A stretch of 64,000 nt of DNA, from positions 1-64,000 of IMG/VR virus record IMGVR_UViG_3300045988_163275; one strand, given 5' to 3'. Position 1 is the first letter of the stretch; the number at the start of each line of letters is the position of its first letter. Shown here piece after piece: positions 2,509 to 63,995 of the stretch. Both the position numbers and the translations under genes were made by a program. The notes under the pieces are model-generated. The model saw only the letters and a program-made list of their open reading frames with translations, searched no databases and was not told the DNA's origin. This stretch comes from a virus (lineage: Duplodnaviria > Heunggongvirae > Uroviricota > Caudoviricetes).

Positions 2509-2529
2509 ATAGGTATATACTTACTTATT
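2509..2529. repeat. TAAGTA-type AT-rich palindrome (family copy)
   Basis: ataggtatatacttacttatt; between J stop and stf start, followed by a GC hairpin. Confidence 0.5.
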
Positions 2530-2599
2530 ATCCATGATACAAAATCCTTTTGCACTAAGAAAACACGCTATATACATTGCTGCTCATTATTCCTATCAA

Positions 2600-5500
2600 T
2601 TAACTGATGCCCGACATGGAAAATGCGCCACTTCCACGGCTGATTAGCATCACGGGCGAATAAATATGTGTCTGTGATGAACTGGTCACTTTTACCGTAA
2701 CAGCAACAGTTCTTGAGGTAACATTGTTAAAAGCAGCGTAAAGAGTGCCACCGACGCCTGTAGAACTTGTCGAATTAAGATCAGGGTCTCTGTATGTTGT
2801 CCCCTTACCAGTGGTTGCGGTCTTCGTCACTCCATTGCAGGTAAATTGGGCTGCAACAGGGCCGACGCCCCCCGTATATACATTTATTGCCACATAAATA
2901 TTTTTGGGCAATGCAGACGAAGAAGAGTCTGTATATGTCATTGTATATGTGCCGTTGTAACGAACTGAGAAGTCATTGCCCACATACATGTTAGCGACAT
3001 CGCCTACGAAGTGATCTGCTTGTACCGTGCCTCTGAATGTTCCGCTGGTAGCCTGTATTTCTCCTGTGAATTTGCCATTTGTTGCGTAAACGGTGCCTCT
3101 AACAGTTACATTGTTAAACTCTGAGTTCCCGTTTTTATTAATATGCCACCCCGTCATCCCGCTTGAGTAATCGTTGGACTGAATGAAGTTGCCTATTTTG
3201 GCGTTATCAATGGTGCCGTTCTTGATATAAGCTCCGTTCATATAAGCCACACCGGCATCAATAACGAATGGCGTTGTAATTTTCCCATTAACGGAGTTCA
3301 CCAAACCAAAGCGATCTGCCTGCACCAAAAACTGCGATAGACCTGTTGTGTCGATGCCCAACGCTATGCCGGCAACATATTTTTGGCCTCCGCTGGTGGA
3401 GGTTTCCATTTTCAGCGTCCAGGCTGTTGATACCTTCTTGTTCGTATCAGCAATAGCTGTGGCCTGTTGTTGAATTGTTGCTGTATTTCCATCTACTGAT
3501 GCTTTTAAGGTGTCAACTCTCCCACTTAGTGCATTGTCGGCGCTTGTACGCGCAGTCGCTTCAGATGTAATCGCAGCATGAATATCTTTGCTCGTTTGAG
3601 CCTGTAGATTAGTGATATTAGAAGCCAAAGCGGAATCAGCATCAGTTCTGGCTTTCGTCTCTTCAGCTACAGCCGCCTTAATATCCTTGCCCGTTTGACT
3701 CTTCAATGTAGTTATCTGTTGTGCCAAAGATTCGTCGGCAGTTGCTCGGGCGTTTTTTTCTTCAGATATAGCGGCACTAATATCGCCTTCAACTTTGGCT
3801 TGTAACGATAGGACTTCTTTTGAAAGTGCTTCATCGGCACTGGCTCGCGCCTCTTGTTCACTCACAATTGCGGCAGAAATGTCATCGTTAATCTTTGATT
3901 CAAGTTTGGTGATTCTGCTTCCAATAGCATTATCCGCATCTACACGAGCCGTAGTCTCTTCAGTGATTGAAGCTCTGATATCCTCATTTATTTCAGCTCT
4001 AATCTCTTCCATTTTCGTAGCCATTGCGGACATATCATCTGCAAAAGCCTTCTGAGTTGTGGCGATCCTGGCATTGCTCACCATCTGTTTGTGCTGGTCT
4101 TCATCCTGACGCAAAGCTAAATCGATGTTTGTTTTAGCCAATGCCTCAATGTTTGTCGTCACTTCGGCACTGGAGTGCTCGACTTCAGCCACGGTTTTTT
4201 TCATCTCTTCAATGGTGGCCAAACTGCTATCTACAGTTGACTTCATTGCCTCGATTTCTTTCGCGTTCGCCAAGTCGCCTTCGACTCGTGCCTCACGTTC
4301 CTCCGCAACTAAAGCCGATGAATTGTCCAGTGCTGCATTCGCGGCCTCAACCGCTCCAGCAACGGCCTTGTCCTGCTCTGAAACAGTTTCCTTCAACTGA
4401 ATTAATGCGGCATTTGAGTTTTCAACCTCCTTAAGAGCCTCTTCCACCTTGCTGGCAGTATTAGAAACTTCCGTTCTAAGAACGTTTTGGGCTTCTTCAA
4501 TCCGTTGATCGGTCTCAGTAAATTTGTCATCAAGGCTTTTCAGGCTTTCTTCCATCTGCTTGTTGATTACGTCGACGGCTTCCTGCGAGGCTTTGGTGTC
4601 GATTTCCTCAAGCAGTTCCTGCCCCAATTCCGAAGAAGTGATCTTCCCGGTCAGGAAAGACAGAACATCTTTCGTCATCGCCTCAGTGCCTAAATTGGAG
4701 TTAGGCTGGCTCAACATTCCGCGTTTGTTTGCTGCACGAACCCAATAGAACCAAGTTTCGCTATCTCCAAGACCTGCGTGCGTAAAGGTGGTACTGGCTG
4801 CTTCGGCAATTAGTTTTGCAGTGTCCAGGTTGTTGGTCCGGGATGCATACACGTTGATGTGATCGAGGTCGATTGAGTCCGGGTTAACCCAATTCAGAAT
4901 CACGTTGCGGTAGTCGCCCACGGCCGTCAGTGCAGTCGGTGCATCCGGCGGCGTCATCGTCCCCTGAACTTTGTAGACGGTGCTGATAATTTCTGTTTTT
5001 TTACCGTTGAATGAAACCGCATACAGTTGGAAGTCGTAGCGTCCATTCTCCGCGACATTAACGATTTCGTATTGCTCTTCGGTTACACGCGCCGATTGCC
5101 AGTTCGATACATTGTTTGCATCAGAACGTCGCCAACTGATCCAATACTCTGGAGATTTCCCTTCCCATGTTGCAGTCAGTTTTACTGACAGGTTGCCCGG
5201 GCTTGAGAGATAAGTCCCTTCAGTGATTTGCAAATTAGACGGCTTGGAGTAAGTCGGGTCCAATACCGTCGTATTCTGCGGGATAAGCGTTGCACCATTG
5301 TCGATCGCCTCATATTTAGACGGATTGTTTTCAACAGCGGTGATGTCAAAGCTACCCGACGTTTCCCCCTGAGCGATGTTAACGATGCGAACGCGCATAG
5401 GTTCGAGATCTGGTTCTGTAATTGTCCAGACACCGTTCAAAACAGGCGTTTCCGCTGACGACAGGGCTTTTGAAAACGTAACTTTTGTTATATTTTCGCC

Positions 5501-9269: not shown

Positions 9270-9298
9270 AAAAAGGCGCCAACATCCTGTCAGCGCCA
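9270..9298 (-). terminator. terminator/attenuator hairpin between M-like and L-like genes
   Basis: Minus strand GTGGCGCTGACAGGATGTTGGCGCC followed by TTTTT, then RBS of L. Confidence 0.55.
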
Positions 9299-9309
9299 CA
9301 ATGATAGTA

Positions 9310-9328
9310 AATTAGTACTTACTTATCC
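9310..9328. repeat. TAAGTA-type palindrome
   Basis: aattagtacttacttatcc; between M and L, directly before the terminator hairpin. Confidence 0.5.
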
Positions 9329-15811: not shown

Positions 15812-15838
15812 AATAGTAAGTATATACTTACTTATTTT
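15812..15838. repeat. TAAGTA-type palindrome
   Basis: aatagtaagtatatacttacttatttt; between U-like and major tail protein genes. Confidence 0.5.
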
Positions 15839-18882: not shown

Positions 18883-18907
18883 CAAAAAAGGTGGGCGTAT
18901 AGCCCAC
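18883..18907 (-). terminator. intrinsic terminator after major capsid gene
   Basis: Minus strand GGTGGGCTATACGCCCACC followed by TTTTTTGT. Confidence 0.65.
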
Positions 18908-18912
18908 CCATA

Positions 18913-18936
18913 TTAAGTAGATAACTATTTACCTAC
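18913..18936. repeat. TAAGTA-type palindrome (degenerate)
   Basis: ttaagtagataactatttacctac; between capsid stop and terminator. Confidence 0.4.
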
Positions 18937-20765: not shown

Positions 20766-22340
20766 TCACTCGGTCTCTTGAGTAGATGAGTCCCCATTCC
20801 CTCGGGGTTGATCTTGTCCGCTTTCTTGGACTATATCGCAATCATAAGTAAGTGCTGACTTATTTTCAAGGGCGCCAGGAGCATTTTTTAGAGGAAATTT
20901 CAAGAGATCTTTTTTAAATTCCTTTTGCATCGCTTCGGAAATATTCGGGAAGATCTTTTCTATGAGCATTTCCATCTGATGACGACGTACAGAATCAGGC
21001 GCCTGTAACAGCGACAATTTCTCAGCGACGGCAAATTCGTCAGTCAGACCACGAATATCGAAACTCTCCGGGTAAGCGATCAGAGAGTGGTCTTCATCCA
21101 ATTCGATGCCCATCCATTTCGCAGCCAACTCCATCATTTGGCGTTCTGCCCTTTCGAGGCGCTCTGCTTTTGTCACCAGCAGACTGTTAATACGTTGGAA
21201 GTCGTACATCTTCGCTGCCCCCGAAGAGTTGTCGATACCCTGCGCGTTATCCTGCTTGGTTCGCTCACCAGCCACACCAACGGAATGGTAGATCTCATTA
21301 ATCACCGTCTTAATCGTGGTGATGATCATCTGAGCCTGTTTCGGGTCTGGAGACAGATAGAATGGCTGATTACCGCTCTCAGAATCGAAGGTGAAGACAC
21401 GTTTTGTCCCCATTTCGAGCACTTTGGTGTGGTTTTCATCGCCCGGCAGCAGGGACTGAACCGGAATCGCTAACTGGCTGAATGTCTGATCCTGAATAAT
21501 CGCGTCAAGGTTCGACAGGTAGTTGGCCACGGCGCGGTCAAGATAGGCGATATCGTCAATTAACGACGGGCTAAAATACGGAGACTCGCTTTCACCAATG
21601 CAATCCACCGGAAACACCGGCACCACCCCAAGATTATGATTGCCACTATCCTCCAGAACGACTTTGGCCTGACGACGACCACTATTCCCTGAACCTTTCT
21701 TCACTTCTTCACGGAACAGATACCACTCGTTTTGCGTCCACAGACGGTAACGCTGGTATTCCTGCCCGGTTGATGTGAACGGATCTTCGTCGTCGCGCGC
21801 GATTTCAACAATCAACGCCCACAACATATTGCCATCTTCATCCCAGGCAACATCAAGCAGCTGCTGCGGCGAAATCCAGTAAGCGTAGGCACGCGCATCA
21901 TTTTTCTTCTCGTCTGCAACAGACTCAACATCGACGTTCATCGTGCTATCCACGACAACCCAGATACGGCCATAAATGGATGATTGCAGATCGATAGCCG
22001 CCATAAACGCATCGATGGAGGCGTTCTGGCGCGTGGCTCGCTTCCAGAAATTGCGGATCTGCTCCGGTGCTTCATCAGTGTTGCGGTGAATGACCTCTTT
22101 GAAGAGGTATTTGTTGATGAGGTTTACCACTTCGCGCGTATGGTTGAAGCGATAAGCGCGTTCCAGGCGCTCTTTGAACTCCTGATCGCCCTCTTTGAAG
22201 TAACGGAAGATATTGTCGTTGAACCAGGCACGCCCGCCAGCGTAGGTGCTGGCGAGGAAGTCCCAATGTTCTTTTTTCTTCTCATATTCAGGGTGGCGTC
22301 GTGCCACAAGGTCTTTGATTTGCTTGTCAGTCAATTCCAT
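20766..22340 (-). CDS. portal protein
   Basis: 524 aa ORF immediately downstream of terminase large subunit; size and position typical of a portal. Confidence 0.75.
   Translation of the reverse strand: MELTDKQIKDLVARRHPEYEKKKEHWDFLASTYAGGRAWFNDNIFRYFKEGDQEFKERLERAYRFNHTREVVNLINKYLFKEVIHRNTDEAPEQIRNFWKRATRQNASIDAFMAAIDLQSSIYGRIWVVVDSTMNVDVESVADEKKNDARAYAYWISPQQLLDVAWDEDGNMLWALIVEIARDDEDPFTSTGQEYQRYRLWTQNEWYLFREEVKKGSGNSGRRQAKVVLEDSGNHNLGVVPVFPVDCIGESESPYFSPSLIDDIAYLDRAVANYLSNLDAIIQDQTFSQLAIPVQSLLPGDENHTKVLEMGTKRVFTFDSESGNQPFYLSPDPKQAQMIITTIKTVINEIYHSVGVAGERTKQDNAQGIDNSSGAAKMYDFQRINSLLVTKAERLERAERQMMELAAKWMGIELDEDHSLIAYPESFDIRGLTDEFAVAEKLSLLQAPDSVRRHQMEMLIEKIFPNISEAMQKEFKKDLLKFPLKNAPGALENKSALTYDCDIVQESGQDQPRGNGDSSTQETE
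20843..20866. repeat. TAAGTA-type palindrome
   Basis: cataagtaagtgctgacttatttt; at the portal 3' end / scaffold upstream region. Confidence 0.45.
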
Positions 22341-22357: not shown

Positions 22358-22379
22358 TTAGGTAAGTACTTACCTATCT
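22358..22379. repeat. TAAGTA-type palindrome (near-perfect)
   Basis: cttaggtaagtacttacctatc; between TerL stop and portal start. Confidence 0.55.
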
Positions 22380-24356: not shown

Positions 24357-24387
24357 GGTGTTTAAAACCGGGCTGGGGAGTATTCAG

Positions 24388-24466
24388 AACCTGCTTCCGT
24401 ATATATTTAATAAGTCACTTAGTATTTATATATACGGAAGCAGGCTCTCAAACTGGCTCCCAGACC
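24388..24466. repeat. 80-bp element: 17-bp inverted repeat around a TAAGTA-type palindrome (copy A)
   Basis: CCTGCTTCCGTATATAT, 21-nt loop (taataagtcacttagtattt), ATATATACGGAAGCAGG, then CTCTCAAACTGGCTCCCAGAC; between operon stop and terS promoter. Confidence 0.7.
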
Positions 24467-24469
24467 GAC

Positions 24470-24736
24470 TTACATCACCAGTAATTTGGCTCTGGCACGA
24501 CCTAACGTGGTCAGTCCCAGCGTGCGACGGTGGTAGCCGGAATCACCGCGCTGGCGGCACATTCCTTTCTCCACCAGCCCCTTTTTCACCAGTGCGCGGA
24601 TAGAGAACTGCATACTCTGTTTGGTCGTTTTGTACGGCAGCACTTCAAGCAGCTCGTCCAGATCGAGCAGATGCCCACGCTCATGGCCTAAATTGATGGT
24701 TTTGATGATGTCTTTTTGTTTGTCGGTCAACGTCAT
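24470..24736 (-). CDS. small winged-helix DNA-binding protein (putative regulator)
   Basis: 88 aa, HTH-like core (TTKQSMQFSIRALVKKGLVEKG); last gene of the ParB/ABC/GNAT operon, just upstream of the 17-bp IR hairpin element. Confidence 0.4.
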   Translation of the reverse strand: MTLTDKQKDIIKTINLGHERGHLLDLDELLEVLPYKTTKQSMQFSIRALVKKGLVEKGMCRQRGDSGYHRRTLGLTTLGRARAKLLVM

Positions 24737-26527: not shown

Positions 26528-27192
26528 GCGGCCAGCTCCCCAGAAGAAACTTTCTCCGCATACGCCACGAAAGCGTCTACCCCGCTCTCTCCCGTGATTT
26601 CTTCCATGTGGGCAAGCAAATCCCCAACCACAATGGCAGAGCCAGCAGGGAGCGTTTTAAAGCCCAATACGTCGATGACGCGGACTTCTTCAGAGGCCAC
26701 TTCGCGACTGATCTCGGTGTGCTCTTCCTTCTGGCGCTCCGTCTCTTCGCCCAGATCGAGCACCAGAGAGCCGGTTTCCATCTCTTCGGTCATGCTGCCG
26801 ACAAGCACGTTCAGCTCGCGCTCTTCAAAACCGAAGACCTCGACGTCGCCCAGCACCAGGGATTCCAGTTCCTGCTGCAATTTGATGGCGTCGTAGTCAA
26901 TACTGGCCAGGCGGTTGTCTTCCAGACGCTTAGCCTTCACTTCTTCTTCGCTCAGATCGTCGCGAACAATGACCGGCACACGCTCCAGACCAGCCAGAAG
27001 AGCCGCCTCGCGACGACCGTGGCCAGTAATGATGACGTCGTGCTTGTCGACAGTGATCGGCTGGTCAAAACCGCGCTTTTTGATGGCGGCCGCCAGATCG
27101 CGGATCTGCTGTTCGTCATGTTTTTTGGCGTTCATCTCATACGGGATGAGTTCTGCCGGGTTTCGATAGACGATTTCAAAGTTTTTGGTCAT
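26524..27192 (-). CDS. ParB-like nuclease domain protein
   Basis: ParB N-terminal domain motif (VIITGHGRREAALLAGLERVPVIV); acidic C-terminal half; start taken at MTKNFEIV, overlapping the upstream stop. Confidence 0.6.
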   Translation of the reverse strand: MTKNFEIVYRNPAELIPYEMNAKKHDEQQIRDLAAAIKKRGFDQPITVDKHDVIITGHGRREAALLAGLERVPVIVRDDLSEEEVKAKRLEDNRLASIDYDAIKLQQELESLVLGDVEVFGFEERELNVLVGSMTEEMETGSLVLDLGEETERQKEEHTEISREVASEEVRVIDVLGFKTLPAGSAIVVGDLLAHMEEITGESGVDAFVAYAEKVSSGELAA

Positions 27193-27890
27193 TACATACG
27201 CTCCTTGTAGTAGTCGACCAGCCACACCAGGGCTTCCCCGGCGTTCTCCATTTCGTTACCGGTATTGATTCCCTGCTCTTTGATGATGGTTTTGATGGTG
27301 TCGGCGACGCGATCTGACGCATCAAACGTCACCTTGAAGCGCATCGTCTGGTGTTCAGCGCCGACTCGCTCGGTTTTCTCGCGTTTGTCCTCATCGACCG
27401 GCTCGTCATCGCCACGGGAGAGCGCTTCCAGCGCTTCAAGATCGATAACGGACGCTTTGGCGAGTGTTGCCGCCATTTCGTCGTCATACGGGGCGATATC
27501 GGACAACCGGTAGTCGATTTCAGACTGGATTTCTTCGATTAAGCGCTGCAAAGCGACCTGATCGTCTTCGCCGTAGCGCTCGTTGTCGACGAGGGAAATC
27601 TGTTTGGCCACCAGATCGTTAATTTTGCCCACGGAGATGACGGGAACCGTTGAAATGCCCTGCTCCATCGCGGCACGCCAGCGGTGTTCACCACCGAGGA
27701 TCTCAAAAATGCCCCCGTCCAACTCCCGCGCCAGAATTGGCTTAAAAAAGCCCAATTTTTCGATAGAGCCTTTCAGTTTTTCGAAGTTTTGCGCCCCAAC
27801 GGAGTTGGTATTCCAGGGATTCGGACGCAGGTTCGCGACTTCCACCTGCAGAATCGTAATTTTCACACCCATAGTTCTGATACAATCCAT
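27192..27890 (-). CDS. ParB-like nuclease domain protein
   Basis: ParB N-terminal motif (FEILGGEHRWRAAMEQGISTVPVI); first gene of the operon, divergent from the helicase gene. Confidence 0.6.
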   Translation of the reverse strand: MDCIRTMGVKITILQVEVANLRPNPWNTNSVGAQNFEKLKGSIEKLGFFKPILARELDGGIFEILGGEHRWRAAMEQGISTVPVISVGKINDLVAKQISLVDNERYGEDDQVALQRLIEEIQSEIDYRLSDIAPYDDEMAATLAKASVIDLEALEALSRGDDEPVDEDKREKTERVGAEHQTMRFKVTFDASDRVADTIKTIIKEQGINTGNEMENAGEALVWLVDYYKERM

Positions 27891-27893
27891 TGT

Positions 27894-27910
27894 ATAAGTA
27901 CTTACTTACC
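27894..27910. repeat. TAAGTA-type palindrome
   Basis: tataagtacttacttacc; in the 64-bp divergent region between the ParB-like operon and the helicase gene. Confidence 0.5.
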
Positions 27911-29514: not shown

Positions 29515-29516
29515 GC

Positions 29517-29795
29517 ATGAGCGAGAAACGCGCTATTAACTGCCAGGTTAAGTTAACCGAAAAAGCAAACGATAAACTAGAGACCTTTCAGAATCGACTG
29601 CGTGAACGCAGCATAAAACTGTCAAAGGCAGACATCATCAATCTGGTGCTGTCCAATATGACGATGGGTGATTTTGATAAGATAGCTACGTCATTAGAGA
29701 CTACTGCAAAGGCTCGTGAAAAGGTCATGAAGATTTACGAAAACTCGGGTATGACCAAAGAAGATCTGGCCGATATTCTAAAACGCCTCGATTGA
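29517..29795 (+). CDS. hypothetical protein
   Basis: 92 aa ORF starting 3 nt after the helicase stop. Confidence 0.4.
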   Translation: MSEKRAINCQVKLTEKANDKLETFQNRLRERSIKLSKADIINLVLSNMTMGDFDKIATSLETTAKAREKVMKIYENSGMTKEDLADILKRLD

Positions 29796-29854
29796 GCATT
29801 ATGGCGCCTTGAGGCGCCATGATTTTCGTAAAGATAAGGATTTTGTTCGGCACA

Positions 29855-30277: not shown

Positions 30278-30281
30278 CGAT

Positions 30282-31125: not shown

Positions 31126-31130
31126 ACATC

Positions 31131-31781: not shown

Positions 31782-31787
31782 TTAGAT

Positions 31788-31812: not shown

Positions 31813-31831
31813 AGTTTTAAGGAGCTTAATC

Positions 31832-32679: not shown

Positions 32680-33162
32680 TTACACGCCATCAAGGATGTG
32701 GATGCGGTTGCTTGCGTATACATTCAGCATAAAGTTAGCGCAAAACAGTTTCCATGTGTCAACGCCAGCGGCATACGTAATGTTTTTGCATTTTATTGCA
32801 TTGTTGGCGATCCACATCCCCTGCGATACTGCTTCATCGTCGGAAAATTTGAACGACGATTGAGTTTTAATCCAGACAGAAATCTGCGTAGCGAACTCAA
32901 TCAGCTTGGACTGGCAGAATCGCCCGGAGCGCACCGGAAAGACGAACGTTCCGAATCCAGAATTTACCACATATGCTTTCTCAAATACCCGCGAGTAACG
33001 ACGATTGCCAATGATGTCGCGTGCAATAATGCATTTTTCTTGTGCTGACAGTTCTACCGTCTCATTGTCGCGCCATGCACCAAGTACTCGTTTTTCAATG
33101 TCAGAGAACGTTACAGCGATATTGCCATGTGCGGGTGCGTTTACAGTAGCGATAAAATTCAT
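32680..33162 (-). CDS. hypothetical early protein
   Basis: 160 aa; conserved promoter plus palindrome module directly upstream. Confidence 0.45.
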   Translation of the reverse strand: MNFIATVNAPAHGNIAVTFSDIEKRVLGAWRDNETVELSAQEKCIIARDIIGNRRYSRVFEKAYVVNSGFGTFVFPVRSGRFCQSKLIEFATQISVWIKTQSSFKFSDDEAVSQGMWIANNAIKCKNITYAAGVDTWKLFCANFMLNVYASNRIHILDGV

Positions 33163-33179
33163 GATTAATTACTTATCGT

Positions 33180-34908: not shown

Positions 34909-34927
34909 CATAAGTAAGTACTTACAA
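34909..34927. repeat. TAAGTA-type palindrome
   Basis: cataagtaagtacttacaat; upstream of 34476..34871. Confidence 0.5.
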
Positions 34928-34992
34928 TACAAAAAAGCCCCGAAGGATTGGCGGGGCTGTCGTACATTCGACTAACTACTGCTTGCACATGT

Positions 34993-41706: not shown

Positions 41707-41728
41707 ATTAGGTAAGTATTTACCTCTC
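41707..41728. repeat. TAAGTA-type palindrome
   Basis: attaggtaagtatttacctctc; between the methyltransferase stop and 41664 start. Confidence 0.5.
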
Positions 41729-46152: not shown

Positions 46153-46174
46153 AGTAGGTAAATACTTACTTATC
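46153..46174. repeat. TAAGTA-type palindrome
   Basis: agtaggtaaatacttacttatc; between rnhA stop and 46120 start. Confidence 0.5.
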
Positions 46175-46774: not shown

Positions 46775-47350
46775 TTTGGCTCCAGAATCGTGCGCCGCGA
46801 CGATTTTTGTTTTCTCGCGCGTGTGCGCACGCGTGCGTGTAAATAATAAAAAATTTTATAAAAGAAAAACTTACTTCCCAGAACAGGTTTTAATAAAACC
46901 TGAACTGAACGAACGAAGTGAGTGAAGTTCACCTCGAACGAAGTGAGAGGTTGTCTTTTCAGGTAATACTCTCCCAGGGAGGTGAGTACAAAATTTCCTC
47001 ACCAACCTGGTCGTTTCATAACCTGAAAAGTTATGACCTAAGTCTACTGCCAGCTTAGGCTTGGGAAGTTATGGATGACAGCACCCCAGAACCGAGATCT
47101 TCCCACACTTTATGAAGGGGAGTACTGGAATCAACCTCTCGAAACACTCCAGACTCGACAATCATAAAGTGACCCTTCTCTCTGCTCACTTTGGTTCCCC
47201 CTTCCCCAACCCCTAAACGGTGCTGGTTCTACGCTGGTAGTGAGCTTTTTTAAACCTGACGCCAGTGACGCAATCCCCCACCCATCAGGTCGAGCTGCCG
47301 AAAGTATCCGGAAGCGGATAGATTGTATCACTGGTTAGTGGCGCTTTGAA

Positions 47351-47368
47351 TGGTAAGTACTTACCTAT
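47351..47368. repeat. TAAGTA-type palindrome
   Basis: tggtaagtacttacctat; overlaps the stop codon of 47368..47598. Confidence 0.5.
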
Positions 47369-47714: not shown

Positions 47715-47795
47715 AGCCTGCGTCTGTATATATTAATAATTAGTACTTAGTTATTTATATATACGGAAGCAGGTTCTCAAACTAACTCCCAGACT
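47715..47795. repeat. 80-bp element: 17-bp inverted repeat around a TAAGTA-type palindrome (copy B)
   Basis: CCTGCGTCTGTATATAT ... ATATATACGGAAGCAGG then TTCTCAAACTAACTCCCAGAC; right arm identical to copy A; immediately 3' of dam. Confidence 0.7.
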
Positions 47796-48403: not shown

Positions 48404-48427
48404 CTGATAGGTAAATACTTACCTATT
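48404..48427. repeat. TAAGTA-type palindrome
   Basis: ctgataggtaaatacttacctatt; 10-15 nt upstream of the dam start. Confidence 0.55.
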
Positions 48428-51241: not shown

Positions 51242-51717
51242 TACGACCTTCTGTATACGATCTGCAAAAAGCCAGGCTCATCCTCATTTGCACGTTGGGT
51301 ATAAGCCGTTTCGACTGGTACGAACCCTAAAGAACGCATCATTGGCGCCGGGAAGAACGCATCCGCGCCCGACACATCCACGCCAATATGCGACAGCCAG
51401 ATCTCTTCAACGTGTGGCATAAAGAGCGAGTAAATCTGCCCGCCACCAATCACCCAGACCGGATCTGGTAGTTTTAAAACGTCATCGATGCCAGCGGGGT
51501 AGAAACCATTGGGGATATAGCCACGAGAGCGCGTCAAAACGAGGTTATGGCGCTCTGGCAGCGGGCGTTTGAGACTTTCCATCGTCTTACGTCCCATCAC
51601 GACAGTGGCGTTTTTGGTGAGTTGTTTGAACAGTTTCAGATCGGTCGGGCAACGCCAGGGAAGTTCGTTGCCAATGCCGATTTCATAGTTGCGGCCGACA
51701 GCTGCAATCATCTTCAT
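51241..51717 (-). CDS. folA: dihydrofolate reductase
   Basis: FolA-like pattern (MIAAVGRNYEIGIGNELPWRCPTDLKLFKQLT...VVMGRKT...VWVIGGGQIY). Confidence 0.8.
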   Translation of the reverse strand: MKMIAAVGRNYEIGIGNELPWRCPTDLKLFKQLTKNATVVMGRKTMESLKRPLPERHNLVLTRSRGYIPNGFYPAGIDDVLKLPDPVWVIGGGQIYSLFMPHVEEIWLSHIGVDVSGADAFFPAPMMRSLGFVPVETAYTQRANEDEPGFLQIVYRRS

Positions 51718-53247: not shown

Positions 53248-53270
53248 AGATAAGTAAGTACATACCTATT
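53248..53270. repeat. TAAGTA-type palindrome
   Basis: agataagtaagtacatacctatt; immediately upstream of the thyA start. Confidence 0.5.
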
Positions 53271-53319: not shown

Positions 53320-53347
53320 AAAAAAAATGGTGGCTCTTCGGCCACCA
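53320..53347 (-). terminator. intrinsic terminator between MazG-like gene and thyA
   Basis: Minus strand TGGTGGCCGAAGAGCCACCA followed by TTTTTTTT. Confidence 0.7.
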
Positions 53348-53402
53348 TTGCAATGAGCAATTAAGAACTTGGACAATAAAACACGCCAAGGCAATATATA
53401 AT

Positions 53403-53419
53403 GATAAGTACTCACTTAC
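53403..53419. repeat. TAAGTA-type palindrome
   Basis: gataagtactcacttac; at the MazG-like stop, before the terminator. Confidence 0.45.
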
Positions 53420-54290
53420 AATTATTTTTTACCATCTCGTAAAGAGATGAGGACTTCGCCTTCTCAACAAAGCAAGTCAGATCCACATCGCTGTAGGTTG
53501 GGGATTTGAGGATCTTGCCATCAGAAACTCTGAAGCCGATCATCATGTCAGTCCCTTCAGCATGGCGGAACCCCAGATCTTCCTTATCGTATTTGCAATT
53601 CTCTACCGCCACACGACGCTCTTCGGCGTCAGCCGGCCACAGCTTGGTCATGTTGGAACGGTGGATTTCTGCCACCAGCTCAACAATATCGATTCCGAGA
53701 AAATCAGCCAGACGGTAGGTCATCATGCAGGCAACGTAGATTTTGTTCATCACGCGGCGCAGCTCCTGCACCAATTCGGAATCGCTTATCGGCTTCGCTT
53801 CAAGTTTGTCAGCCAGCGCATTCAGCATTAATGCAGCTTCTTTTGCTTCTTCAAACGGGATAGCCATATCGTCAAAGACCGTGTTGCCCGGAACCATGAT
53901 GGTGTGGATGAAGCGATCAACACTCTGCTCTTGGGTGTAGTAACTCATGCCCGTCGAGATGCCGCCTTTGATGGCCACCATTGTGCCGACGCCCACGTAA
54001 AGGAAGTCAGCCATCGCGTCCAGCAGTGCCGTCATATCCCCATTTTTGGCTGCCGGGATGCCCTCGGTAACTGCTTCTTCGTGGATCAGCTTGGCACGCA
54101 GACGCAGTAATGCCGGATCTGGAATGGCACGGCGTGGGTGCTGAAACAGTGTGTGGAACTGGTCAACCATCAGGTAGATGCTTTCCGTTGTCTTGCCGAA
54201 ACCGGGATTCAACTCGTAAGGCTCTGGTTTAAACCCCACGAGTTTGTCTGCGGCAAGTTTCAGATGATCGGTCAGTTTCGTAAATTTCAT
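53412..54290 (-). CDS. hypothetical protein, possibly MazG-like NTP pyrophosphohydrolase
   Basis: All-alpha segments with acidic motifs (RAKLIHEEAVTE; EAKEAALMLNALADKLE) reminiscent of MazG/HisE-type enzymes; weak. Confidence 0.3.
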   Translation of the reverse strand: MKFTKLTDHLKLAADKLVGFKPEPYELNPGFGKTTESIYLMVDQFHTLFQHPRRAIPDPALLRLRAKLIHEEAVTEGIPAAKNGDMTALLDAMADFLYVGVGTMVAIKGGISTGMSYYTQEQSVDRFIHTIMVPGNTVFDDMAIPFEEAKEAALMLNALADKLEAKPISDSELVQELRRVMNKIYVACMMTYRLADFLGIDIVELVAEIHRSNMTKLWPADAEERRVAVENCKYDKEDLGFRHAEGTDMMIGFRVSDGKILKSPTYSDVDLTCFVEKAKSSSLYEMVKNNCK

Positions 54291-54496
54291 GTTTTCTTTC
54301 CTTTAGACTTCTCTTGATACGCCAATTTTGACCCAGCAGCGCCAGGCCACAAAGTGGTTAAACTCGGCTTAGAGGTATTCGAACTGGCTCAGGCCAGTGC
54401 AATCGACAGCGAACTTTGTCAGCGCTTCATGCAACTGGCAGCGGCTCGGTGGGCGTTACGTTTTACGATGCTTATTATGTGTAGCCCAATTAAAAA

Positions 54497-54516
54497 GACC
54501 ACTATATATAGTGGTC
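54497..54516. repeat. perfect 20-bp palindrome GACCACTATATATAGTGGTC
   Basis: Perfect inverted repeat whose arms (CCACTATA) match the repA iteron core; about 7 kb from the origin. Confidence 0.5.
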
Positions 54517-54524
54517 TCATGGTA

Positions 54525-54545
54525 ATAGATAAGCACTTACCTATC
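54525..54545. repeat. TAAGTA-type palindrome
   Basis: atagataagcacttacctatc; downstream of the RuvC-like stop. Confidence 0.45.
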
Positions 54546-54555
54546 AATTATCAAC

Positions 54556-55125
54556 TTATAAAATTCCAGCAAGAACATCGCGAACCTGACGGAATTGATC
54601 AGTTTGCATACCGGTGTAAATCGATGCGACAGCGTCCGCAAGGTGCTCGTTTTTATTCACCAGCACTTCCTTGCCCGATTGCTTCCGGCGCAACCACGGG
54701 GCGTTTGGCTGCTTCTGCGTAGCCCACTGAATGATCTCTTCTTTCGACGTAGTCAGCTTATTCCCGACATAGTACTTAATCTCGTTTGGCGTGACCTGTA
54801 TCAGTGGCTTATCCACACACGCCAGTACGCCAAGACAACCACCATAAGAAACCATCGCTCTAGCAGATTGACTGCCTACTGGCAGTTCACAGAACACTAA
54901 ATGAACTTGGTCAATCAGTGGCTTAATACCACGCCAAATCTCGTTCAACCGCCGCATATCGTCACTGTTAACGCGAACTTGCTTTTTCGTATCACCAGCT
55001 TTCGTCTCAATGAGATGCAACTTATTGACCTGCAATGCACCTGAATCCAGTTCTATTTCTCCGATGGCAACGCCAAAATTTGACAGAGATGGATCGAGAC
55101 CTGCAACTTTGATTACTTTTTTCAC
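54556..55125 (-). CDS. RuvC-like Holliday junction resolvase
   Basis: N-terminal GLDPSLSNFGVAIGE (first catalytic Asp), FCELP, C-terminal EHLADAVASIY, consistent with the RuvC/RNase H-like fold. Confidence 0.6.
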   Translation of the reverse strand: MKKVIKVAGLDPSLSNFGVAIGEIELDSGALQVNKLHLIETKAGDTKKQVRVNSDDMRRLNEIWRGIKPLIDQVHLVFCELPVGSQSARAMVSYGGCLGVLACVDKPLIQVTPNEIKYYVGNKLTTSKEEIIQWATQKQPNAPWLRRKQSGKEVLVNKNEHLADAVASIYTGMQTDQFRQVRDVLAGIL

Positions 55126-59956: not shown

Positions 59957-59977
59957 ATAAGTAAGTAAATACCTATC
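59957..59977. repeat. TAAGTA-type palindrome
   Basis: ataagtaagtaaatacctatc; upstream of sbcD. Confidence 0.45.
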
Positions 59978-60238: not shown

Positions 60239-60883
60239 TTAAAACGTCTCTGAGGGCTTCTGACGCGCTCTGCTGATGTCTATTACCCCAGCTTTTGGAC
60301 GAGGGTCTACAAGATTCAACTCTTCAGCACTGTGATACTCCGTGTCGAACTCCCGATCGACATGGCGAATGTAAATGGCTGTCAGAAGGCTGTTATCATT
60401 CAGAAAGTGTCCGTAAGATTTGCGAATTACTTCGCCAACCTTCTCAATCTTCTCTCCGCCCATGCAGAGATGGTTAAATCGGCTGTGTTTCCGCAGCATT
60501 TCATCCACCGGGCCTGAGTAGACCTTATCAACTCTCCCGAACCGGATGACATTTCCGGTATCAGCTTCAACCAGACAAACGAGTTTGCCAGGTTCGACAC
60601 GATCTCGCCAAGTGACACCAGAGCGCAGTGTGTTGAAGTAGGGAGCATCCAATCCGATGATCGGTTTACGAAATGCTAGTAGTGGCACGTAACGTATGCA
60701 GCTGTTTAGGTGGAAATGCGCACCGGCGTCGTGGAGTTTAAGCCGGGTTTCGTTAATCGGGCATTTCGAAGCAATGCCGCAAAGGTCGCAGAGCAACTTC
60801 TGTTTGTTCAGACTAGTGTTTGATTCAATGGTGTAGGAGCCATCTTCAAGACGGCGAACCCAGCGCGTGCGTTTAAGATCCAT
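60239..60883 (-). CDS. hypothetical protein
   Basis: 214 aa ORF between the sbcD upstream region and the repA origin; no motif recognised. Confidence 0.4.
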   Translation of the reverse strand: MDLKRTRWVRRLEDGSYTIESNTSLNKQKLLCDLCGIASKCPINETRLKLHDAGAHFHLNSCIRYVPLLAFRKPIIGLDAPYFNTLRSGVTWRDRVEPGKLVCLVEADTGNVIRFGRVDKVYSGPVDEMLRKHSRFNHLCMGGEKIEKVGEVIRKSYGHFLNDNSLLTAIYIRHVDREFDTEYHSAEELNLVDPRPKAGVIDISRARQKPSETF

Positions 60884-61069: not shown

Positions 61070-61590
61070 GAAGGGGTTACTATCCACTATAGGGAGCAAA
61101 ATAACCACTGTAGAGAGCATAATAACCGCTATGAAGAGCAAAACAACCTCTCTGGAGAGTAGTCGGTATCCACTGTAGTGAGTAGGAGACAATGTTTTAA
61201 CTGGATAACTCCGAGCCTGTTTTTCTGCGGCAGATGGCTGATATTCTTGGAAATATTGTAAATTTTGCGTTGCGGCGTGTTTATTTCGATCACACATTAT
61301 CCCCAGAAGGGGAGTGATGCCTGATTTTGTAATTATCTGATTTTTATACACAGGCCCGATCCAGTAATTCAGATCCCTGTTAGAACCAAAGAGAACCACA
61401 AAGACCCAAAGAGATCCCCGGACCCTGCAAACCGTTGTGCCACATGGCTTTAGAGGTTATCGATATCCACTATAGCGAGAATAACAACCACTATGGAGAG
61501 TAAATCAACCACTATGGAGAGTAGAAAAACCGCTGTAGGCGGTAGGATAACCACTGTGATGGGTGCTACTATCCACTGTAATCAGTAAAG
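61070..61590 (+). repeat. origin iteron arrays upstream of repA
   Basis: About 11 direct repeats of roughly 20 bp (TATCCACTATAGGGAG, TAACCACTGTAGAGAG, CAACCACTATGGAGAG ...) in two clusters (61076-61185; 61460-61585) separated by an AT-rich segment; GATC clusters at 60990-61040 and 61350-61420. Confidence 0.8.
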
Positions 61591-61625
61591 GCACCCAAGC
61601 CGTCGAATAAAAAGAGACATTTGGA

Positions 61626-62681
61626 ATGAGCGTAAACGACAATAAAAACATTGCGATAAGCGAAGCATTTTCCGAAACAGACAAAAAGACCGGCGAAGTT
61701 GTTACGTTAGTTCCTAACACCAACAACACAGTTCAGCCTGTTGCTCTGATGCGTCTTGGTCTCTTCGTTCCGACGCTGAAATCGACATCCAGGGGTAGAA
61801 AGGGGCAAATGGTCTCTATGGACGCCTCCGCTGAACTCAAACAGCTGTCTCTGGCCAAAGCCGAAGGGTACGAGGATATAAGGATTGCTGGTCTTCGTCT
61901 TGATATGGATAACGATTTCAAAACATGGGTGGGCATCATCCACGCGTTCGCCAAGCACAAGGTTGTTGGTGACACCGTCACGTTGCCGTTCGTCGAGTTC
62001 GTCAGACTTTGTGGCATACCAACAGCCAGATCGTCCGCGAAGTTACGTAAGCGCCTGGACAGCTCTCTAAGTCGTATCGCCACAAACACCATCTCATTCC
62101 GCAGCAAAGGCTCTGAAGAGTATTACGTTACGCACCTTGTGCAGACGGCAAAGTACAGTACCAAGAATGACACGGTCGAACTGAAGGCCGATCCTAAGAT
62201 TTTCGAACTTTACCAGTTCGACAAAAAGGTGCTTTTGCAACTTCGGGCCATCAACGAACTCTCCAGAAAGGAATCCGCGCAGGCGCTCTACACCTTCATT
62301 GAAAGTTTGCCACCAGACCCGGCGCCAATCTCATTGGCTCGCTTACGCGCCAGACTTAACTTAACCAGCCGCACCATTACCCAGAATGCGACAGTCAGGA
62401 AGGCGATGGAGCAACTGCGAGAGATCGGCTATCTCGATTACACTGAAGTGAAACGCGGCAGCTCGGTCTACTTCGTCATCCACTATAGACGGCCGAAGTT
62501 ACGTTCGGCACTGCCGCCATCTATGGCCACGCCTGAAGATCCAGAAGATATCTTGCCAGGTGATGATCCGGAGGACATTATCGATGTTGCTCCTGAAGAA
62601 AAAGACGGGGAAATGGTCATGTTGAGCAAGGAAGAACTGGCGATTCTCGAAGAGCTGCGCAAGGCAAAGGCTCGCAAATAG
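61626..62681 (+). CDS. repA: iteron-binding replication initiator (P1/RepFIB-type RepA)
   Basis: N-terminal [21 protein letters not shown] and central [78 protein letters not shown] resemble RepFIB/P1 RepA; flanked by iteron arrays. Confidence 0.85.
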
Positions 62682-62684
62682 CCC

Positions 62685-63245
62685 AACCACTGTAGAGAGT
62701 AAAAAGGCTCACTATCCACTGTAGTGAGCCTTTTTGTTTATCGGAAATGCAATATCCACTGTAGTGAGTAAAAGAAACCGAAGAATAACCACTGTAGGCA
62801 GTGCGCACAAATCGCGAAGTAAATGTTAGTGGTTGCAAACATAGATAAAACAAGGGCTGAGAGGTTAGCGGTCACTGGGTATCCATGTTAAGTCTACTCT
62901 CTACAGCGGTTATCGTCGCTCTCTTCATTGTTGACTATCCACTGTGAAGAGCAGAATTGGCTGACTTGACCTTTATCCACTGTAGTGAGTGGATATCTGT
63001 TTAAAACAGCGAAGATTTACTCTCCATAGTGGATATCCGCTGGAGGAGGCATTCCATCACTCTCTATAGTGGTTGTTTGTAGTCAGTGAACGCCTGTTTA
63101 CTCACTACAGTGGATAGTTGATATCGTGGCAGAGGGTTTGCTCACTACAGTGGTTGGGGTGCATACCTGAAGGGTGTTCTACTCGCTACAGTGGTTATGA
63201 GCCGGATTCACACACGGTGAGCTGGCTACTCACCGCAGTGGATAG
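62685..63245. repeat. iteron array downstream of repA (incA-like)
   Basis: About 13 copies of the same CCACTGTAG core in both orientations (e.g. CTCACTATCCACTGTAGTGAG; CTCACTACAGTGGATAG). Confidence 0.8.
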
Positions 63246-63466: not shown

Positions 63467-63798
63467 CTAATCTCCTTGCAGTCATCGAAAAGGTAGCTGT
63501 CGTTCTTCGCGTGAACGCCGTATACATCACCCGATTTGTTGTAAACGAACCTATCTTTACCTACGCCAGATAGTTCGCCGTTACGTTTAGTGAGAAACGG
63601 GGAAGACAGGACGCGATCATCGCGTACCACATAAAACTGTTCGCCGCGGTCCACAACCATCGCGCCGTAATTAGCTTTAACGACGTTACGGATCAGGCCG
63701 TTTTTCGCTTCGACCACAAACATTTCGCACTCATAGACATGTGTGTCCGCAAAGACGGGGAGAGTGAGCAGCGCCAGTACCAGGGCTGTTTTCTTCAT
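63463..63798 (-). CDS. secreted small protein
   Basis: Signal peptide MKKTALVLALLTLPVFA; mature part about 94 aa with 2 Cys. Confidence 0.45.
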   Translation of the reverse strand: MKKTALVLALLTLPVFADTHVYECEMFVVEAKNGLIRNVVKANYGAMVVDRGEQFYVVRDDRVLSSPFLTKRNGELSGVGKDRFVYNKSGDVYGVHAKNDSYLFDDCKEIS

Positions 63799-63974
63799 GC
63801 CACGACTCCTTTGAAAACGCCTAATGCTGAGTCGAAGACCAGTACTACGGCCAGCGCATTGATCATCACATCATTAACAGGCGCCAGCGCTTTACGGATT
63901 GCCTCTGTGAAGATGCAGTCGAGCACAAAGGCTATCGAGATAATAAGTAACGTAATATCTAATAAAATTTTCAT
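63795..63974 (-). CDS. small membrane protein (59 aa; below ORF-track cutoff)
   Basis: Minus-strand translation MKILLDITLLIISIAFVLDCIFTEAIRKALAPVNDVMINALAVVLVFDSALGVFKGVVA; stop overlaps the ATG of the next gene. Confidence 0.35.
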   Translation of the reverse strand: MKILLDITLLIISIAFVLDCIFTEAIRKALAPVNDVMINALAVVLVFDSALGVFKGVVA

Positions 63975-63995
63975 GATAGGTAAATGCTAACTTAT
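63975..63995. repeat. TAAGTA-type palindrome
   Basis: gataggtaaatgctaacttat; immediately upstream of the 59-aa membrane ORF. Confidence 0.45.

Follow-up and report, generated by a model that had tools for sequence, protein, structure and literature searches.

Recurrent 20-bp palindromes at the gene junctions of an SSU5-like phage-plasmid: possible operators and roadblocks bound by a phage repressor

The DNA analysed here, a 64-kb stretch of an E. coli SSU5-like phage-plasmid (the window), carries one short palindrome many times over, and the question arises of whether such a dispersed family serves as a promoter element, as a binding site for a protein, or as a signal in RNA. The consensus, rATA[R]GTAAGTACTTAC[Y]TATy, is a 20-bp palindrome with the least conserved positions at its centre; 19 copies were found in the window versus 0.3 expected, corresponding to about one site per 4 kb. 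A symmetrised PWM yielded 19 peaks at 12 bits or more versus 0.33 in 200 dinucleotide shuffles, 17 versus 0.07 at 14 bits or more, and 16 versus 0.00 at 18 bits or more, while shuffling the AT-richer intergenic DNA alone gave an expectation of 0.06. Since the matrix was trained on the same sites that it scores, mismatch counts provide the independent test of copy number: the consensus TAGGTAAGTACTTACCTA with at most three mismatches was matched 10 times (0.00 expected), and the core TAAGTACTTA with at most one mismatch 13 times (0.81 expected). The preliminary description of this DNA had given at least 19 copies, and both approaches show the family to be real and above chance; the copy that it called near-perfect at 22358 is in fact perfect, and it occupies positions 22359–22376, so that the 22-mer starts at 22357. 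The motif is thus confirmed as a true, non-random repeat of a regulatory kind, associated with signals for transcription. All sites and associated elements are listed in Table 1.

Table 1. Copies of the palindrome, neighbouring signals and candidate binding proteins in the window
Feature	Positions	Strand	Score (bits)	Context
Motif copy	2510..2527		28.6	After tail-tip J-like gene; GC hairpin downstream on transcribed (-) strand, about 2485-2506
Intrinsic terminator, M/L	9275..9297	-		10 nt downstream of site 9308
Motif copy	9308..9325		24.6	Between M-like and L-like tail genes; inside predicted - strand promoter TGGATA-17-TATCAT
Motif copy	15817..15834		26.8	After tail-completion gene; weaker hairpin downstream
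Intrinsic terminator, capsid/decoration	18889..18909	-		8 nt downstream of site 18918
Motif copy	18918..18935		22.8	9 nt past major capsid stop codon
Motif copy	20845..20862		23.4	Within portal ORF 3' end; in spacer of TTGAAA-17-TATGAT (20869 to 20841, - strand), the best sigma70-like promoter of the portal 3' region
Perfect palindrome TAGGTAAGTACTTACCTA	22359..22376			First three - strand bases are the TerL stop codon; portal ATG 18 nt on
Single half-site ATAAGTCAC	24407..24427			Loop of inverted repeat with 24-nt arms (24383-24451), upstream of terS
88-aa winged-helix (MarR-like fold) protein, candidate binder	24470..24736	-		Directly upstream of terS
ParB N-terminal (CTPase-fold) protein, candidate binder	27192..27872	-		First gene of operon starting at site 27891
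Motif copy	27891..27908		20.3	Divergent region between UvsW-like helicase operon (+) and ParB-fold/late operon (-); -10-like hexamers on both sides
Weak motif copy	33158..33175		12.0	
Motif copy	34911..34928		20.0	Directly past an upstream terminator; predicted promoter TTGTAA-17-TAAAAT
Motif copy	41709..41726		25.1	Abuts stop codon of DUF4942 gene
Motif copy	46155..46172		29.3	5 nt past RNase H-like gene
Motif copy	47350..47367		27.2	Sole window locus with antisense predicted promoter
Weak motif copy	47736..47753		13.4	
Motif copy	48408..48425		31.1 (top score)	Adenine-methyltransferase start 13 nt on
Motif copy	53251..53268		30.0	Just upstream of thymidylate synthase RBS
Intrinsic terminator, MazG/thyX	53326..53349	-		Between sites 53401 and 53251
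Motif copy	53401..53418		14.7	Overlaps MazG-like stop codon; predicted promoter TTGTAA-17-TATATT
Intrinsic terminator	54495..54518	-		7 nt downstream of site 54526
Motif copy	54526..54543		27.3	12 nt past RuvC-like gene; predicted promoter TTGATA-17-TACCAT
Motif copy	59958..59975		26.3	Upstream of SbcD-like gene
Motif copy	63977..63994		20.9	Window edge, past repA iteron block

According to the gene calls of this analysis, 18 of the 19 sites are intergenic, while intergenic DNA makes up only 16% of the window; the sole exception, in the portal gene, is kept at the same place in relatives. The distance of 10–50 nt to the next start codon given previously is roughly right, but the spacing from the upstream stop codon is more regular: at 9 of 14 scorable window sites, the motif starts 0–12 nt past this codon or contains it. 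The motif precedes early, replication, nucleotide-metabolism and late genes alike, and at several of the best sites a transcription start would not fit in before the RBS, as at the TerL/portal site 22359 and at site 59400 of phage Cyrano, which lies 2 nt from an ATG. Sites mark borders between lysogeny-expressed and lytic genes, one example being Cyrano site 31297, which follows the par operon.

The motif is also the most over-represented word in relatives, with about 25 sites in Cyrano and 27 in Klebsiella pJN2-26 (about 23–27 per genome), and the same gene junctions carry it in distant relatives with TerL only about 54–75% identical and a genome GC content of 40–64%. Orthologous sites are 85.8% identical, compared with 72.7% for the 40-nt flanks; judging from such alignments, the motif is under selection, with purifying selection acting on each half-site. 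The outer TARGT...ACYTA is universal and was kept from Enterobacteria to alpha- and beta-proteobacterial relatives, whereas the inner 8 nt are lineage-specific, being of the type AAGTACTT, AGTTAACT, ATTTAAAT or CACnnGTG, and are shared by all copies within one genome. In each lineage the inner core is self-complementary despite the sequence change, the AGTTAACT clade keeping a G..T pair.

Two further sequence patterns were recorded in the course of these comparisons. A CCTTATA element occurs near motifs in GC-rich relatives; it was rejected as a partner of the motif, since the two are unassociated in the window, where the element clusters only at 30500–30911. A scan with a degenerate G-type pattern returned mostly noise.

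Gene conversion could also produce an inner core shared genome-wide, and one could suppose that the repeats are scars of recombination or mobility without a regulator of their own, that is, module-boundary sequences for mosaic exchange, comparable to T4-type promoter/stem-loop cassettes or miniature mobile repeats. The location of the sites at gene and module junctions is consistent with this, as is the absence from the window of the ribonucleotide reductase genes of Cyrano, SSU5 and pJN2-26, missing directly beside site 54526 and its hairpin. However, the sites are syntenic over very large distances and not newly scattered in each lineage, neither target-site duplications nor longer repeat units were found around them, and they are short palindromes in which each half-site appears to be under purifying selection. 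Alternatively, the repeats could be targets of a sequence-specific DNA modification by the ParB-fold/ATPase cluster; phage enzymes that modify DNA can be activated by proteins with a ParB fold (PMC13229309), but this cluster showed neither a dioxygenase nor a modifying enzyme comparable to one. Taken together, scars or modification targets are a very improbable explanation.

Several junctions combine the motif with termination signals. The three intrinsic terminators reported previously (M/L, capsid/decoration and MazG/thyX, the last gene there named thyA) were confirmed, and a fourth, absent from that set, was found directly after site 54526. The GC hairpin described as following the motif is real and conserved at four or five junctions, where an intrinsic terminator or a strong hairpin lies within about 10 nt of it, but is not general to the family, being present downstream of only about 5 of the 19 window sites. 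Hairpins lie downstream rather than upstream at 12 versus 4 of 64 sites; counted by independent loci, the figures are about 5 versus 2 (Wilcoxon p 0.22), and such a bias was rejected as a family property. After the capsid gene, the order stop codon, motif, GC hairpin and RBS occurs in all seven aligned genomes, with a U-rich tail of the hairpin that is clear in five of them, degenerate in L020 and absent in L131. Instead of two copies forming the loops of a 17-bp inverted repeat, as had been proposed, one large repeat was found, with arms at 24383–24406 and 24428–24451 and only a half-site in the loop.

These arrangements could indicate that the motif acts in the mRNA, as a junction hairpin for an RNA-binding regulator, processing, stability, translation or antitermination, in the last case as a nut-like element just upstream of internal terminators, whose read-through is required for late genes. 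Indeed, transcription passes through the motif in every case, its position is tied to the stop codon upstream, and the next RBS is often just 2–18 nt away; self-complementarity of the inner core in every lineage points in the same direction, and G.U-type mismatches exceed A.C-type ones on the transcribed (sense) strand (47 versus 28). The G.U excess was attributed to a C-to-T bias on the coding strand, while an RNA hairpin would give the same. However, no compensation between the arms was detected within any of three genomes, the numbers of complementary pairs being 106, 140 and 172 versus 107.1, 147.9 and 172.7 after shuffling (p 0.40–0.97); the half-sites vary independently in each of these genomes, and 67 of 390 cells are non-pairing mismatches. 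The hairpins are weak (mean -4.4 kcal/mol, 7 of 17 weaker than -4) with similar energies for sense and antisense, no Rfam family matched at the gathering score, and the stem sequence is kept far past structural need. Since the halves are independent, the hairpins weak and Rfam matches absent, the motif has the properties of a DNA target of a symmetric protein rather than those of structured RNA, which disfavours the RNA processing site suggested earlier and makes a function in mRNA distinctly unlikely.

At the DNA level, the motif is embedded in a promoter at about a third of loci, while two thirds of the sites have no recognisable promoter. Among 64 sites, a full sigma70-type promoter that holds the motif in its spacer was found 17 times in sense orientation and twice in antisense; by our own count of independent loci, this is about eight versus one. 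The -10 hexamer falls at motif position 17, 20 or 25, with the -35 present and spacers of 16–18 bp; because there are three such phasings, occlusion of the promoter fits better than phase-dependent activation. Single -10-like hexamers flank the motif symmetrically on both sides and, therefore, part of the promoter likeness is inherent in the palindrome; a directional -10 element beside the motif was rejected, since only the full -35/-10 combination is directional. The late or middle promoter element served by an activator, one of the functions proposed initially, fits poorly with complete sigma70-type promoters, three phasings, non-late genes and sites without room for a start. Of the other proposal, a binding site for an activator or antiterminator, the protein-binding part is supported, but a repressor and its operator fit better than either of these factors.

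We therefore consider which protein might read these sites. The explanation that we favour, with a probability of roughly 45%, is that the motif forms a genome-wide family of operators and roadblocks for a phage repressor, the likeliest binder being a small HTH repressor encoded beside the integrase, outside the window (CYRAN_45 in Cyrano). One phage-encoded, twofold-symmetric regulator would recognise about 25–30 copies over the phage-plasmid of about 100 kb. Where the site lies in a promoter spacer or over a start site, at about a third of the loci, the bound protein would keep RNA polymerase out. The other junctions lack room for a promoter; there, the protein could serve as a roadblock between lytic transcription units or insulate them from one another, and at four or five of these junctions an intrinsic terminator or strong hairpin lies a few bases further on as a backup. 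In sum, early, replication and late genes would stay silent during plasmid life. Simple repression does not account for the conserved succession of stop codon, motif and terminator behind the capsid gene.

In all four A-type classes of the HTH repressor, its promoter reads TTTACA-N17-TAATAT followed directly by GGTAAGYACTTACC, and the palindrome core covers the start site; from this position, the repressor would be autoregulated. The Cyrano and Klebsiella repressors are 56% identical, yet have in common the HTH segment GYKN.N.LSLIK and the same motif, while the repressor of the clade with the AGTTAACT inner core carries GYENANNLSNIK in place of this segment; its promoter lacks the tidy succession of -10 and core, and just a degenerate site is present about 150 nt upstream. 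We infer repression and a roadblock role, and for the candidate binder we rely on position and this single evolutionary contrast. The repressor is transcribed in Cyrano lysogens; the genes listed as expressed in these do not include those of the ParB-fold proteins (PMC9928086).

Alternatively, the same DNA sites could be read by a conserved core protein of the lytic phase encoded in the window, either the 88-aa winged-helix protein or a ParB-fold protein, for temporal control or for coating or organisation of replicating phage DNA, and not for prophage silencing. Immunity operators are usually far less deeply conserved than the outer half of the motif, and, for this reason, a slowly evolving core protein fits that half better than an immunity repressor. 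Wherever the flank of a relative extended over the position of the candidates, both were present; they belong to an operon with the motif in its promoter region, and the density of about one site per 4 kb would also suit such a protein. The winged-helix protein, present wherever the flank covers the terS-proximal region, has a confidently predicted fold (pLDDT 85; TM 0.70–0.76 to MarR, MexR and MepR) and could be a late regulator in the Lpa/RinA position next to the terminase genes. However, four inner-core types go with one and the same recognition helix, TTKQSMQFSIRAL, while L020 and Chelativorans have a different helix although both keep the AAG-type motif, and an activator acting at about -20 is difficult to reconcile with three phasings, optimal 17-bp spacers and the sites without room.

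The second candidate is one of two PF02195 proteins in the window (26524–27225 and 27192–27890); it could load at the palindromes in the manner of KorB or Noc and then spread or slide. Its ParB N domain, alignable to Spo0J and Noc, retains GGEHRWRA, the canonical box II of ParB being GERRxRA; under this reading, loading at the motif would depend on CTP. Only this domain is confidently predicted: the tail, a conserved strand-helix-helix, is putatively ribbon-helix-helix-like, has no Pfam match and no HTH, and reaches a C-terminal pLDDT of about 60–80. The beta-strand HQTMRFKVTFD is identical in the AAGTACTT and AGTTAACT clades, and co-variation with the inner core was rejected for the winged-helix recognition helix, this strand and the tail of the second ParB-fold protein, none of which changes between these clades. 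Homologue searches with the two candidates retrieved close relatives only, and scans of viral contigs with the ParB-fold alignment were likewise dominated by them. Precedents are offered by Lpa of phage P1 with its 11 inverted-repeat sites (PMC10695390) and by KorB (PMC11790492); no Lpa-like match was recognised with Pfam or PHROGs among ten proteins (around terS, in the helicase operon, and the 60239–60883 product). A core protein as reader is possible but rather unlikely.

In a more specific form of this idea, the palindromes are loading sites for the ParB-CTPase-fold protein at 27192–27872 with its ribbon-helix-helix-like tail, which would be a KorB- or Noc-like clamp native to a large family of siphoviral phage-plasmids. 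Loaded about every 4 kb, it would coat or scan the whole phage genome, and late transcription, read-through of internal terminators or packaging could be coupled to the coated state; we regard this as improbable. A FljA-family protein (30240–30809; PF03614, E 1.9e-95) was rejected as a binder: distant relatives retain the motif, yet their flanks lack this gene, and in the E. coli fliC 5' UTR the likeness is only partial and gapped.

Comparison with known systems bears on the repressor reading first. The stoperators of mycobacteriophage L5 are asymmetric 13–14 bp sites that are oriented with transcription and change between subclusters; in L5 and cluster A phages they were reportedly described by Brown et al. 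in 1997. Like stoperators, the motif is a putative repressor-type site with tens of copies scattered over early and late operons, where it keeps to the short intergenic gaps between neighbouring genes; a putative true operator at a promoter comes on top of these. Unlike them, the motif is a 20-bp palindrome with symmetric flanks and no transcription-tied asymmetry, about a third of its sites lie inside sigma70-type promoters, and its outer half-site is common to many host genera. The core over the repressor promoter and the one contrast of HTH and motif would indirectly fit binding by a prophage repressor here too, which may block elongation.

In phage P1, Lpa binds a 9-bp inverted repeat at each of 11 late promoters (PMC10695390). 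Both elements are phage-plasmids of about 100 kb with many transcription units, each with a short shared protein-binding sequence, and in both inverted repeats lie beside the -10, the motif centre being near -20 to -22 at some loci. In P1, however, the repeat is fixed at about -22 and replaces the -35, whereas the phasing of the motif is variable and the -35 is present; the motif is unrelated in sequence, is not limited to late genes and includes sites without room for a start, and the position before terS is held here by the unrelated winged-helix protein. The dispersed C1 operator of P1, with a 17-bp asymmetric consensus (ATTGCTCTAATAAATTT), was rejected, with one match at three mismatches versus 0.18 expected, which is chance level.

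The OB operators of KorB in plasmid RK2 (PMC11790492), as well as Noc and ParB sites, resemble the motif in being short palindromes with a dozen or more copies per plasmid-sized replicon, near promoters and far from them, and a ParB-fold protein is encoded beside motif site 27891. In contrast to those systems, the ParB-fold proteins here have no recognisable HTH but a strand-helix-helix tail of uncertain fold, and the putative DNA-reading strand is constant where the motif changes. Matches to canonical parS in the window were at chance level, and this site was rejected.

Phage-plasmids of the SSU5 type occur commonly in E. coli, Klebsiella, Salmonella and Yersinia, and 787 plasmid records match part of the window. 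Phage-plasmids have been linked to resistance genes in the literature, and the annotation of a close relative includes a DfrA51 dihydrofolate reductase. Almost nothing was found in the searched literature on the silencing or timing of the approximately 100 lytic genes in SSU5-type elements; the motif appears in none of the papers searched and the reachable SSU5 literature is silent on it, in agreement with the preliminary description, which knew it from no described phage system. One 20-bp word at nearly every lytic transcription unit would provide a direct handle on this control, predicts a regulon, and could serve as a simple bait for the regulator. It is unusual for an immunity operator to have an outer half-site conserved this deeply, and the conservation would be informative whichever protein binds; if the ParB clamp were true, viruses would be using the ParB fold in a new way and in a new architecture. 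Under the favoured repressor reading, all elements with the AAGTACTT inner core would be predicted to be cross-immune, and the AGTTAACT, ATTTAAAT and CACnnGTG lineages to be heteroimmune.

The AT-rich palindromes of this genome are a genuine genome-wide family of predicted protein-binding sites. On the transcribed strand, the motif reads rA-TA[R]GTAAGTA[C/t]TTA[C/t][C/t]TA-Ty, a 20–22 bp palindrome with AT-rich symmetric flanks. Its copy number is above chance: the consensus with up to three mismatches was matched 10 times and never in shuffled sequences, and the 10-bp core with at most one mismatch 13 times against 0.8 expected. These counts are the independent test, since the symmetrised weight matrix, with 19 peaks of at least 12 bits (0.33 in dinucleotide shuffles) and 16 of at least 18 bits (0 in the shuffles), was built from the same sites. 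The preliminary description had listed about 19 copies, one of them near-perfect, and three intrinsic terminators. The count and the terminators were borne out, the copy in question (22359–22376) is perfect, and a fourth terminator was found directly after the site starting at 54526. It had also placed two copies in the loops of larger inverted repeats; only one such repeat was found, upstream of terS, with 24-nt arms enclosing an AT-rich segment that holds a motif half-site. Comparable repeats, with a half-site or full site, occur in relatives of very different GC content (loci L020, about 2840–2920; L133, 9085–9399; L134, 8947–9397). The repeat upstream of terS may serve as the principal late control region or belong to pac.

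Intergenic DNA makes up only 16% of the window and harbours 18 of the 19 sites, partly because stop codons fill two frames of the motif on each strand and thus keep it out of open reading frames. The sole copy within a gene, at the 3' end of the portal gene, lies in an open frame and is kept in Escherichia phage Cyrano, the Klebsiella relative pJN2-26, and the distant locus L131. For 9 of the 14 sites that could be scored, the motif starts 0–12 nt past the upstream stop codon on the transcribed strand or contains that stop; at site 22359, its first triplet is the TAG stop codon of terL. The distance to the next start codon is more variable, from 13 to more than 200 nt.

The window (64 kb) belongs to an Escherichia coli phage-plasmid of the SSU5 type, with 99% identity to plasmids pGS04EC-1 and pYLPI6a, 93–97% to Salmonella phage SSU5, and about 78–84% to Cyrano and Klebsiella relatives. 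A near-identical backbone (ParB-fold protein 98–99%) was seen in a Yersinia pestis NCTC5923 contig (L217) and in a contig labelled as a Bacillota MAG (L215), a label that is probably a binning artefact. Nearly all genes lie on the minus strand, which carries, from high to low coordinates, genes of nucleotide metabolism, recombination and replication, small early genes in a block, and the late operon (ParB-fold gene pair, terS, terL, portal, capsid, tail). SSU5, Cyrano and pJN2-26 carry ribonucleotide reductase genes between a RuvC-like and a MazG-like gene; these are absent from the window at 54290–54556, and the gap directly adjoins site 54526 and its terminator. The repeats around repA, ten in all and present on both sides of it, look like iterons of a plasmid origin. 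No gene for the FljA-family protein, which may be a moron acting on host flagellin, turned up in the flanking DNA of three distant relatives (L131, L133, L134).

Coordinates of features in the window and of the candidate readers of the palindrome
Feature	Coordinates	Strand	Remarks
Post-capsid terminator hairpin	18889-18909		Sequence as well as structure conserved from Enterobacteria to L133/L134 (GGGTGGGC..GCCCACC)
Long inverted repeat	24383-24451		Upstream of terS
Candidate reader (a), 88-aa protein	24470-24736	-	Winged helix; directly upstream of terS
Two adjacent ParB N-terminal-fold genes	26524-27890	-	Head of late operon
Candidate reader (b), ParB N-terminal-fold protein	27192-27872	-	
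Short operon, UvsW-like helicase and FljA-family protein	27955-32062	+	
FljA-family protein, full-length	30240-30809	+	Pfam PF03614 (repressor of phase-1 flagellin), E 1.9e-95
CCTTATA-containing repeat cluster	30500-30911	-	Near helicase operon end
Second recurrent element, about 60 nt each	33190, 33675, 35323, 35814, 37369, 37600, 38961, 43432, 44153	-	Partial copy near 24347
Sigma70-type early promoters	33190, 33675, 35323, 35814, 38961, 43432, 44153		-35, 17-18 bp, GATAAT-like -10
Dihydrofolate reductase	51241-51717	-	Nucleotide-metabolism block; trimethoprim-resistant DfrA51 in pGS04EC-1 annotation
repA	61626-62681		
CCACTGTAG(t/a)GAG repeats, ten copies	61105-63186		On either side of repA
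Candidate reader (c), small HTH repressor	Outside window (CYRAN_45)		Adjoins integrase

The preliminary description had proposed a comparison of orthologous positions, and the motif was indeed found at them. Cyrano contains about 23 strong sites and pJN2-26 about 25–27, with the same consensus as in the window, and no 9-mers of the pJN2-26 genome are more frequent than the motif words. Orthologous sites in the window and these two genomes are 85.8% identical against 72.7% for the 40-nt flanks (coding ends and ribosome-binding sites included). Distant relatives were collected through TerL homologues (L131–L134), a motif scan of viral contigs, and alignment of the ParB-fold protein against species-representative genomes. 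Their TerL is about 54–75% identical to that of the window, the gene order is unchanged, and the motif occupies equivalent junctions: the divergent region between the helicase and ParB-fold genes, the region preceding terS, the TerL/portal junction, the 3' end of the portal gene, and the positions following the capsid and major tail genes. Motif-bearing relatives span 40 to 64% GC and include Morganella, Xenorhabdus, Photobacterium, a Piscirickettsiaceae MAG, Massilia, and Chelativorans. Neither the outer TARGT...ACYTA nor the 20-bp length varies among all the relatives compared; the inner eight bases do, by lineage: AAGTACTT in the clade of the window and in several distant clades, AGTTAACT in a clade whose ParB-fold protein is 74% identical, ATTTAAAT in Morganella and Xenorhabdus, and CACnnGTG in L131, L133, the Piscirickettsiaceae MAG, and Massilia.

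An action of the motif as an RNA element appears improbable. Within each of three genomes, we asked whether the two arms of one site pair better with each other than with arms of other sites; observed Watson–Crick pairs did not exceed the shuffled values (106 vs 107.1, 140 vs 147.9, and 172 vs 172.7; p 0.40 to 0.97), so that deviations from the consensus are uncompensated, the pattern expected if a symmetric protein contacted the half-sites independently. The predicted RNA hairpins are weak (mean -4.4 kcal/mol, with 7 of 17 weaker than -4) and about equally stable on the antisense strand, and an Rfam search of the motif gave no match. The main remaining point for an RNA role is the excess of G.U-type over A.C-type mismatches on the sense strand (47 vs 28), which we attribute to a C-to-T bias of the coding strand, visible also in the strand GC skew. 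Recombination or modification sites seem a still more remote interpretation of the palindromes.

Single hexamers resembling -10 and -35 elements are equally frequent at either edge of the motif and belong to the extended palindrome. Complete promoters (at least 4/6 per hexamer and 9/12 in total, with a 16–18 bp spacer) containing the motif in the spacer were found at 17 of 64 pooled sites in sense orientation and at 2 in antisense, corresponding to about eight independent loci against one when orthologues are grouped by our own assignment. In a separate promoter scan of 60 kb, 6 of 18 minus-strand predictions coincided with motif sites. Predicted promoters at motif sites include one inside the portal gene (20841–20869, site 20845) and those at sites 9308, 53401 and 54526. 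An activator site requires fixed phasing and usually substitutes for the -35 hexamer; here, the -10 is located at position 17, 20 or 25 of the motif, spacer lengths are optimal (16–18 bp), and -35 hexamers are present, so the predicted geometry is that of an operator occluding a self-sufficient promoter rather than of an activator site. Between the divergent helicase and ParB-fold genes, two -10-like elements face each other across the motif. Other sites cannot, judging from their distance to the following ATG, be promoters for the next gene: this distance is 18 nt at site 22359 (portal, with the ribosome-binding site in the gap), 13 nt at site 48408, and 2 nt at Cyrano 59400. Such sites would only be passed through or block passage. 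The second recurrent element, of about 60 nt, is probably the other palindrome family of the preliminary description; its palindrome AAACAAnTTGTTT was found also in Cyrano and pJN2-26, and seven of its copies show sigma70-type early promoters followed by a conserved leader, ACACCAAnAAGAAAACAAnTTGTTTA, ending at the Shine–Dalgarno sequence of small early genes.

Within 45 nt of the motif, strong hairpins were located downstream at 12 of the 64 sites and upstream at 4, which represent only about five and two independent loci, respectively. After the capsid gene, the order of stop codon, motif, 3–10 nt, GC hairpin, and ribosome-binding site is kept in seven genomes, one of them of 64% GC, and the hairpin has a clear U-rich tail in five. 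Since no more than about 20 nt separate these terminators from the starts of the following genes, late transcription must read through them. That the motif always comes before the hairpin may reflect an inherited order, or the pair may act jointly as an insulator. Clusters of CCTTATA-containing repeats lie near the end of the helicase operon in the window and in L131 (2280–2412), and also in long intergenic regions of L133 and L134; within the window, they are not associated with the palindrome.

Three proteins are candidate readers. The 88-aa protein is confidently modelled (pLDDT 85) as a winged helix resembling MarR, MexR or MepR. The ParB-fold protein keeps GGEHRWRA. Instead of the usual HTH, the products of both late-operon ParB-fold genes carry a short strand-helix-helix that is conserved at the C-terminus; in the candidate it consists of MRFKV... 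followed by two helices. The tail of the candidate resembles a ribbon-helix-helix, is not recognised by Pfam, and lies beyond the N domain, the only part modelled confidently. Two ABC-like ATPase genes follow the pair. Reading of the sites by either protein for lytic-phase control agrees with the presence of the 88-aa protein in every relative whose flank covered the position before terS, and with conservation of the ParB cluster from Enterobacteria to Massilia and Chelativorans relatives. It is nevertheless rather unlikely. Neither protein tracks the inner core: the recognition helix of the winged-helix protein is constant over four inner-core types and differs in two lineages retaining the AAG-type core, and the putative DNA-reading strand of the ParB-fold protein is identical between the AAGTACTT and AGTTAACT clades.

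The HTH repressor is the only candidate whose predicted reading head changes along with the site. With just 56% identity, the repressors of Cyrano and Klebsiella still have GYKN.N.LSLIK in common, which is replaced by GYENANNLSNIK in the AGTTAACT-clade repressors at 7 of 7 loci recovered by repressor alignment. This co-change is one evolutionary contrast, not proof. In all four AAGTACTT-clade repressor classes, the repressor promoter TTTACA-N17-TAATAT is directly followed by GGTAAGYACTTACC, so that the palindrome core covers the repressor start site. The gene is transcribed in Cyrano lysogens (PMC9928086). A point against this reader is the outer half-site, whose conservation reaches deeper than is usual for immunity operators.

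No description of this palindrome family was found in the literature searched, including the reachable SSU5 literature. Among known systems, the stoperators of L5, the C1 and Lpa regulons of P1 (PMC10695390), and the KorB operators (PMC11790492) come closest; by sequence or defining geometry, the family belongs to none of them. A regulon of operators and roadblocks is the best-supported mechanism, and we assign a probability of about 0.45 to this model with the prophage repressor as the reader. Sites within promoter spacers or over start sites would keep lytic promoters shut, and those at junctions without a promoter would insulate operons, at some junctions together with terminators.
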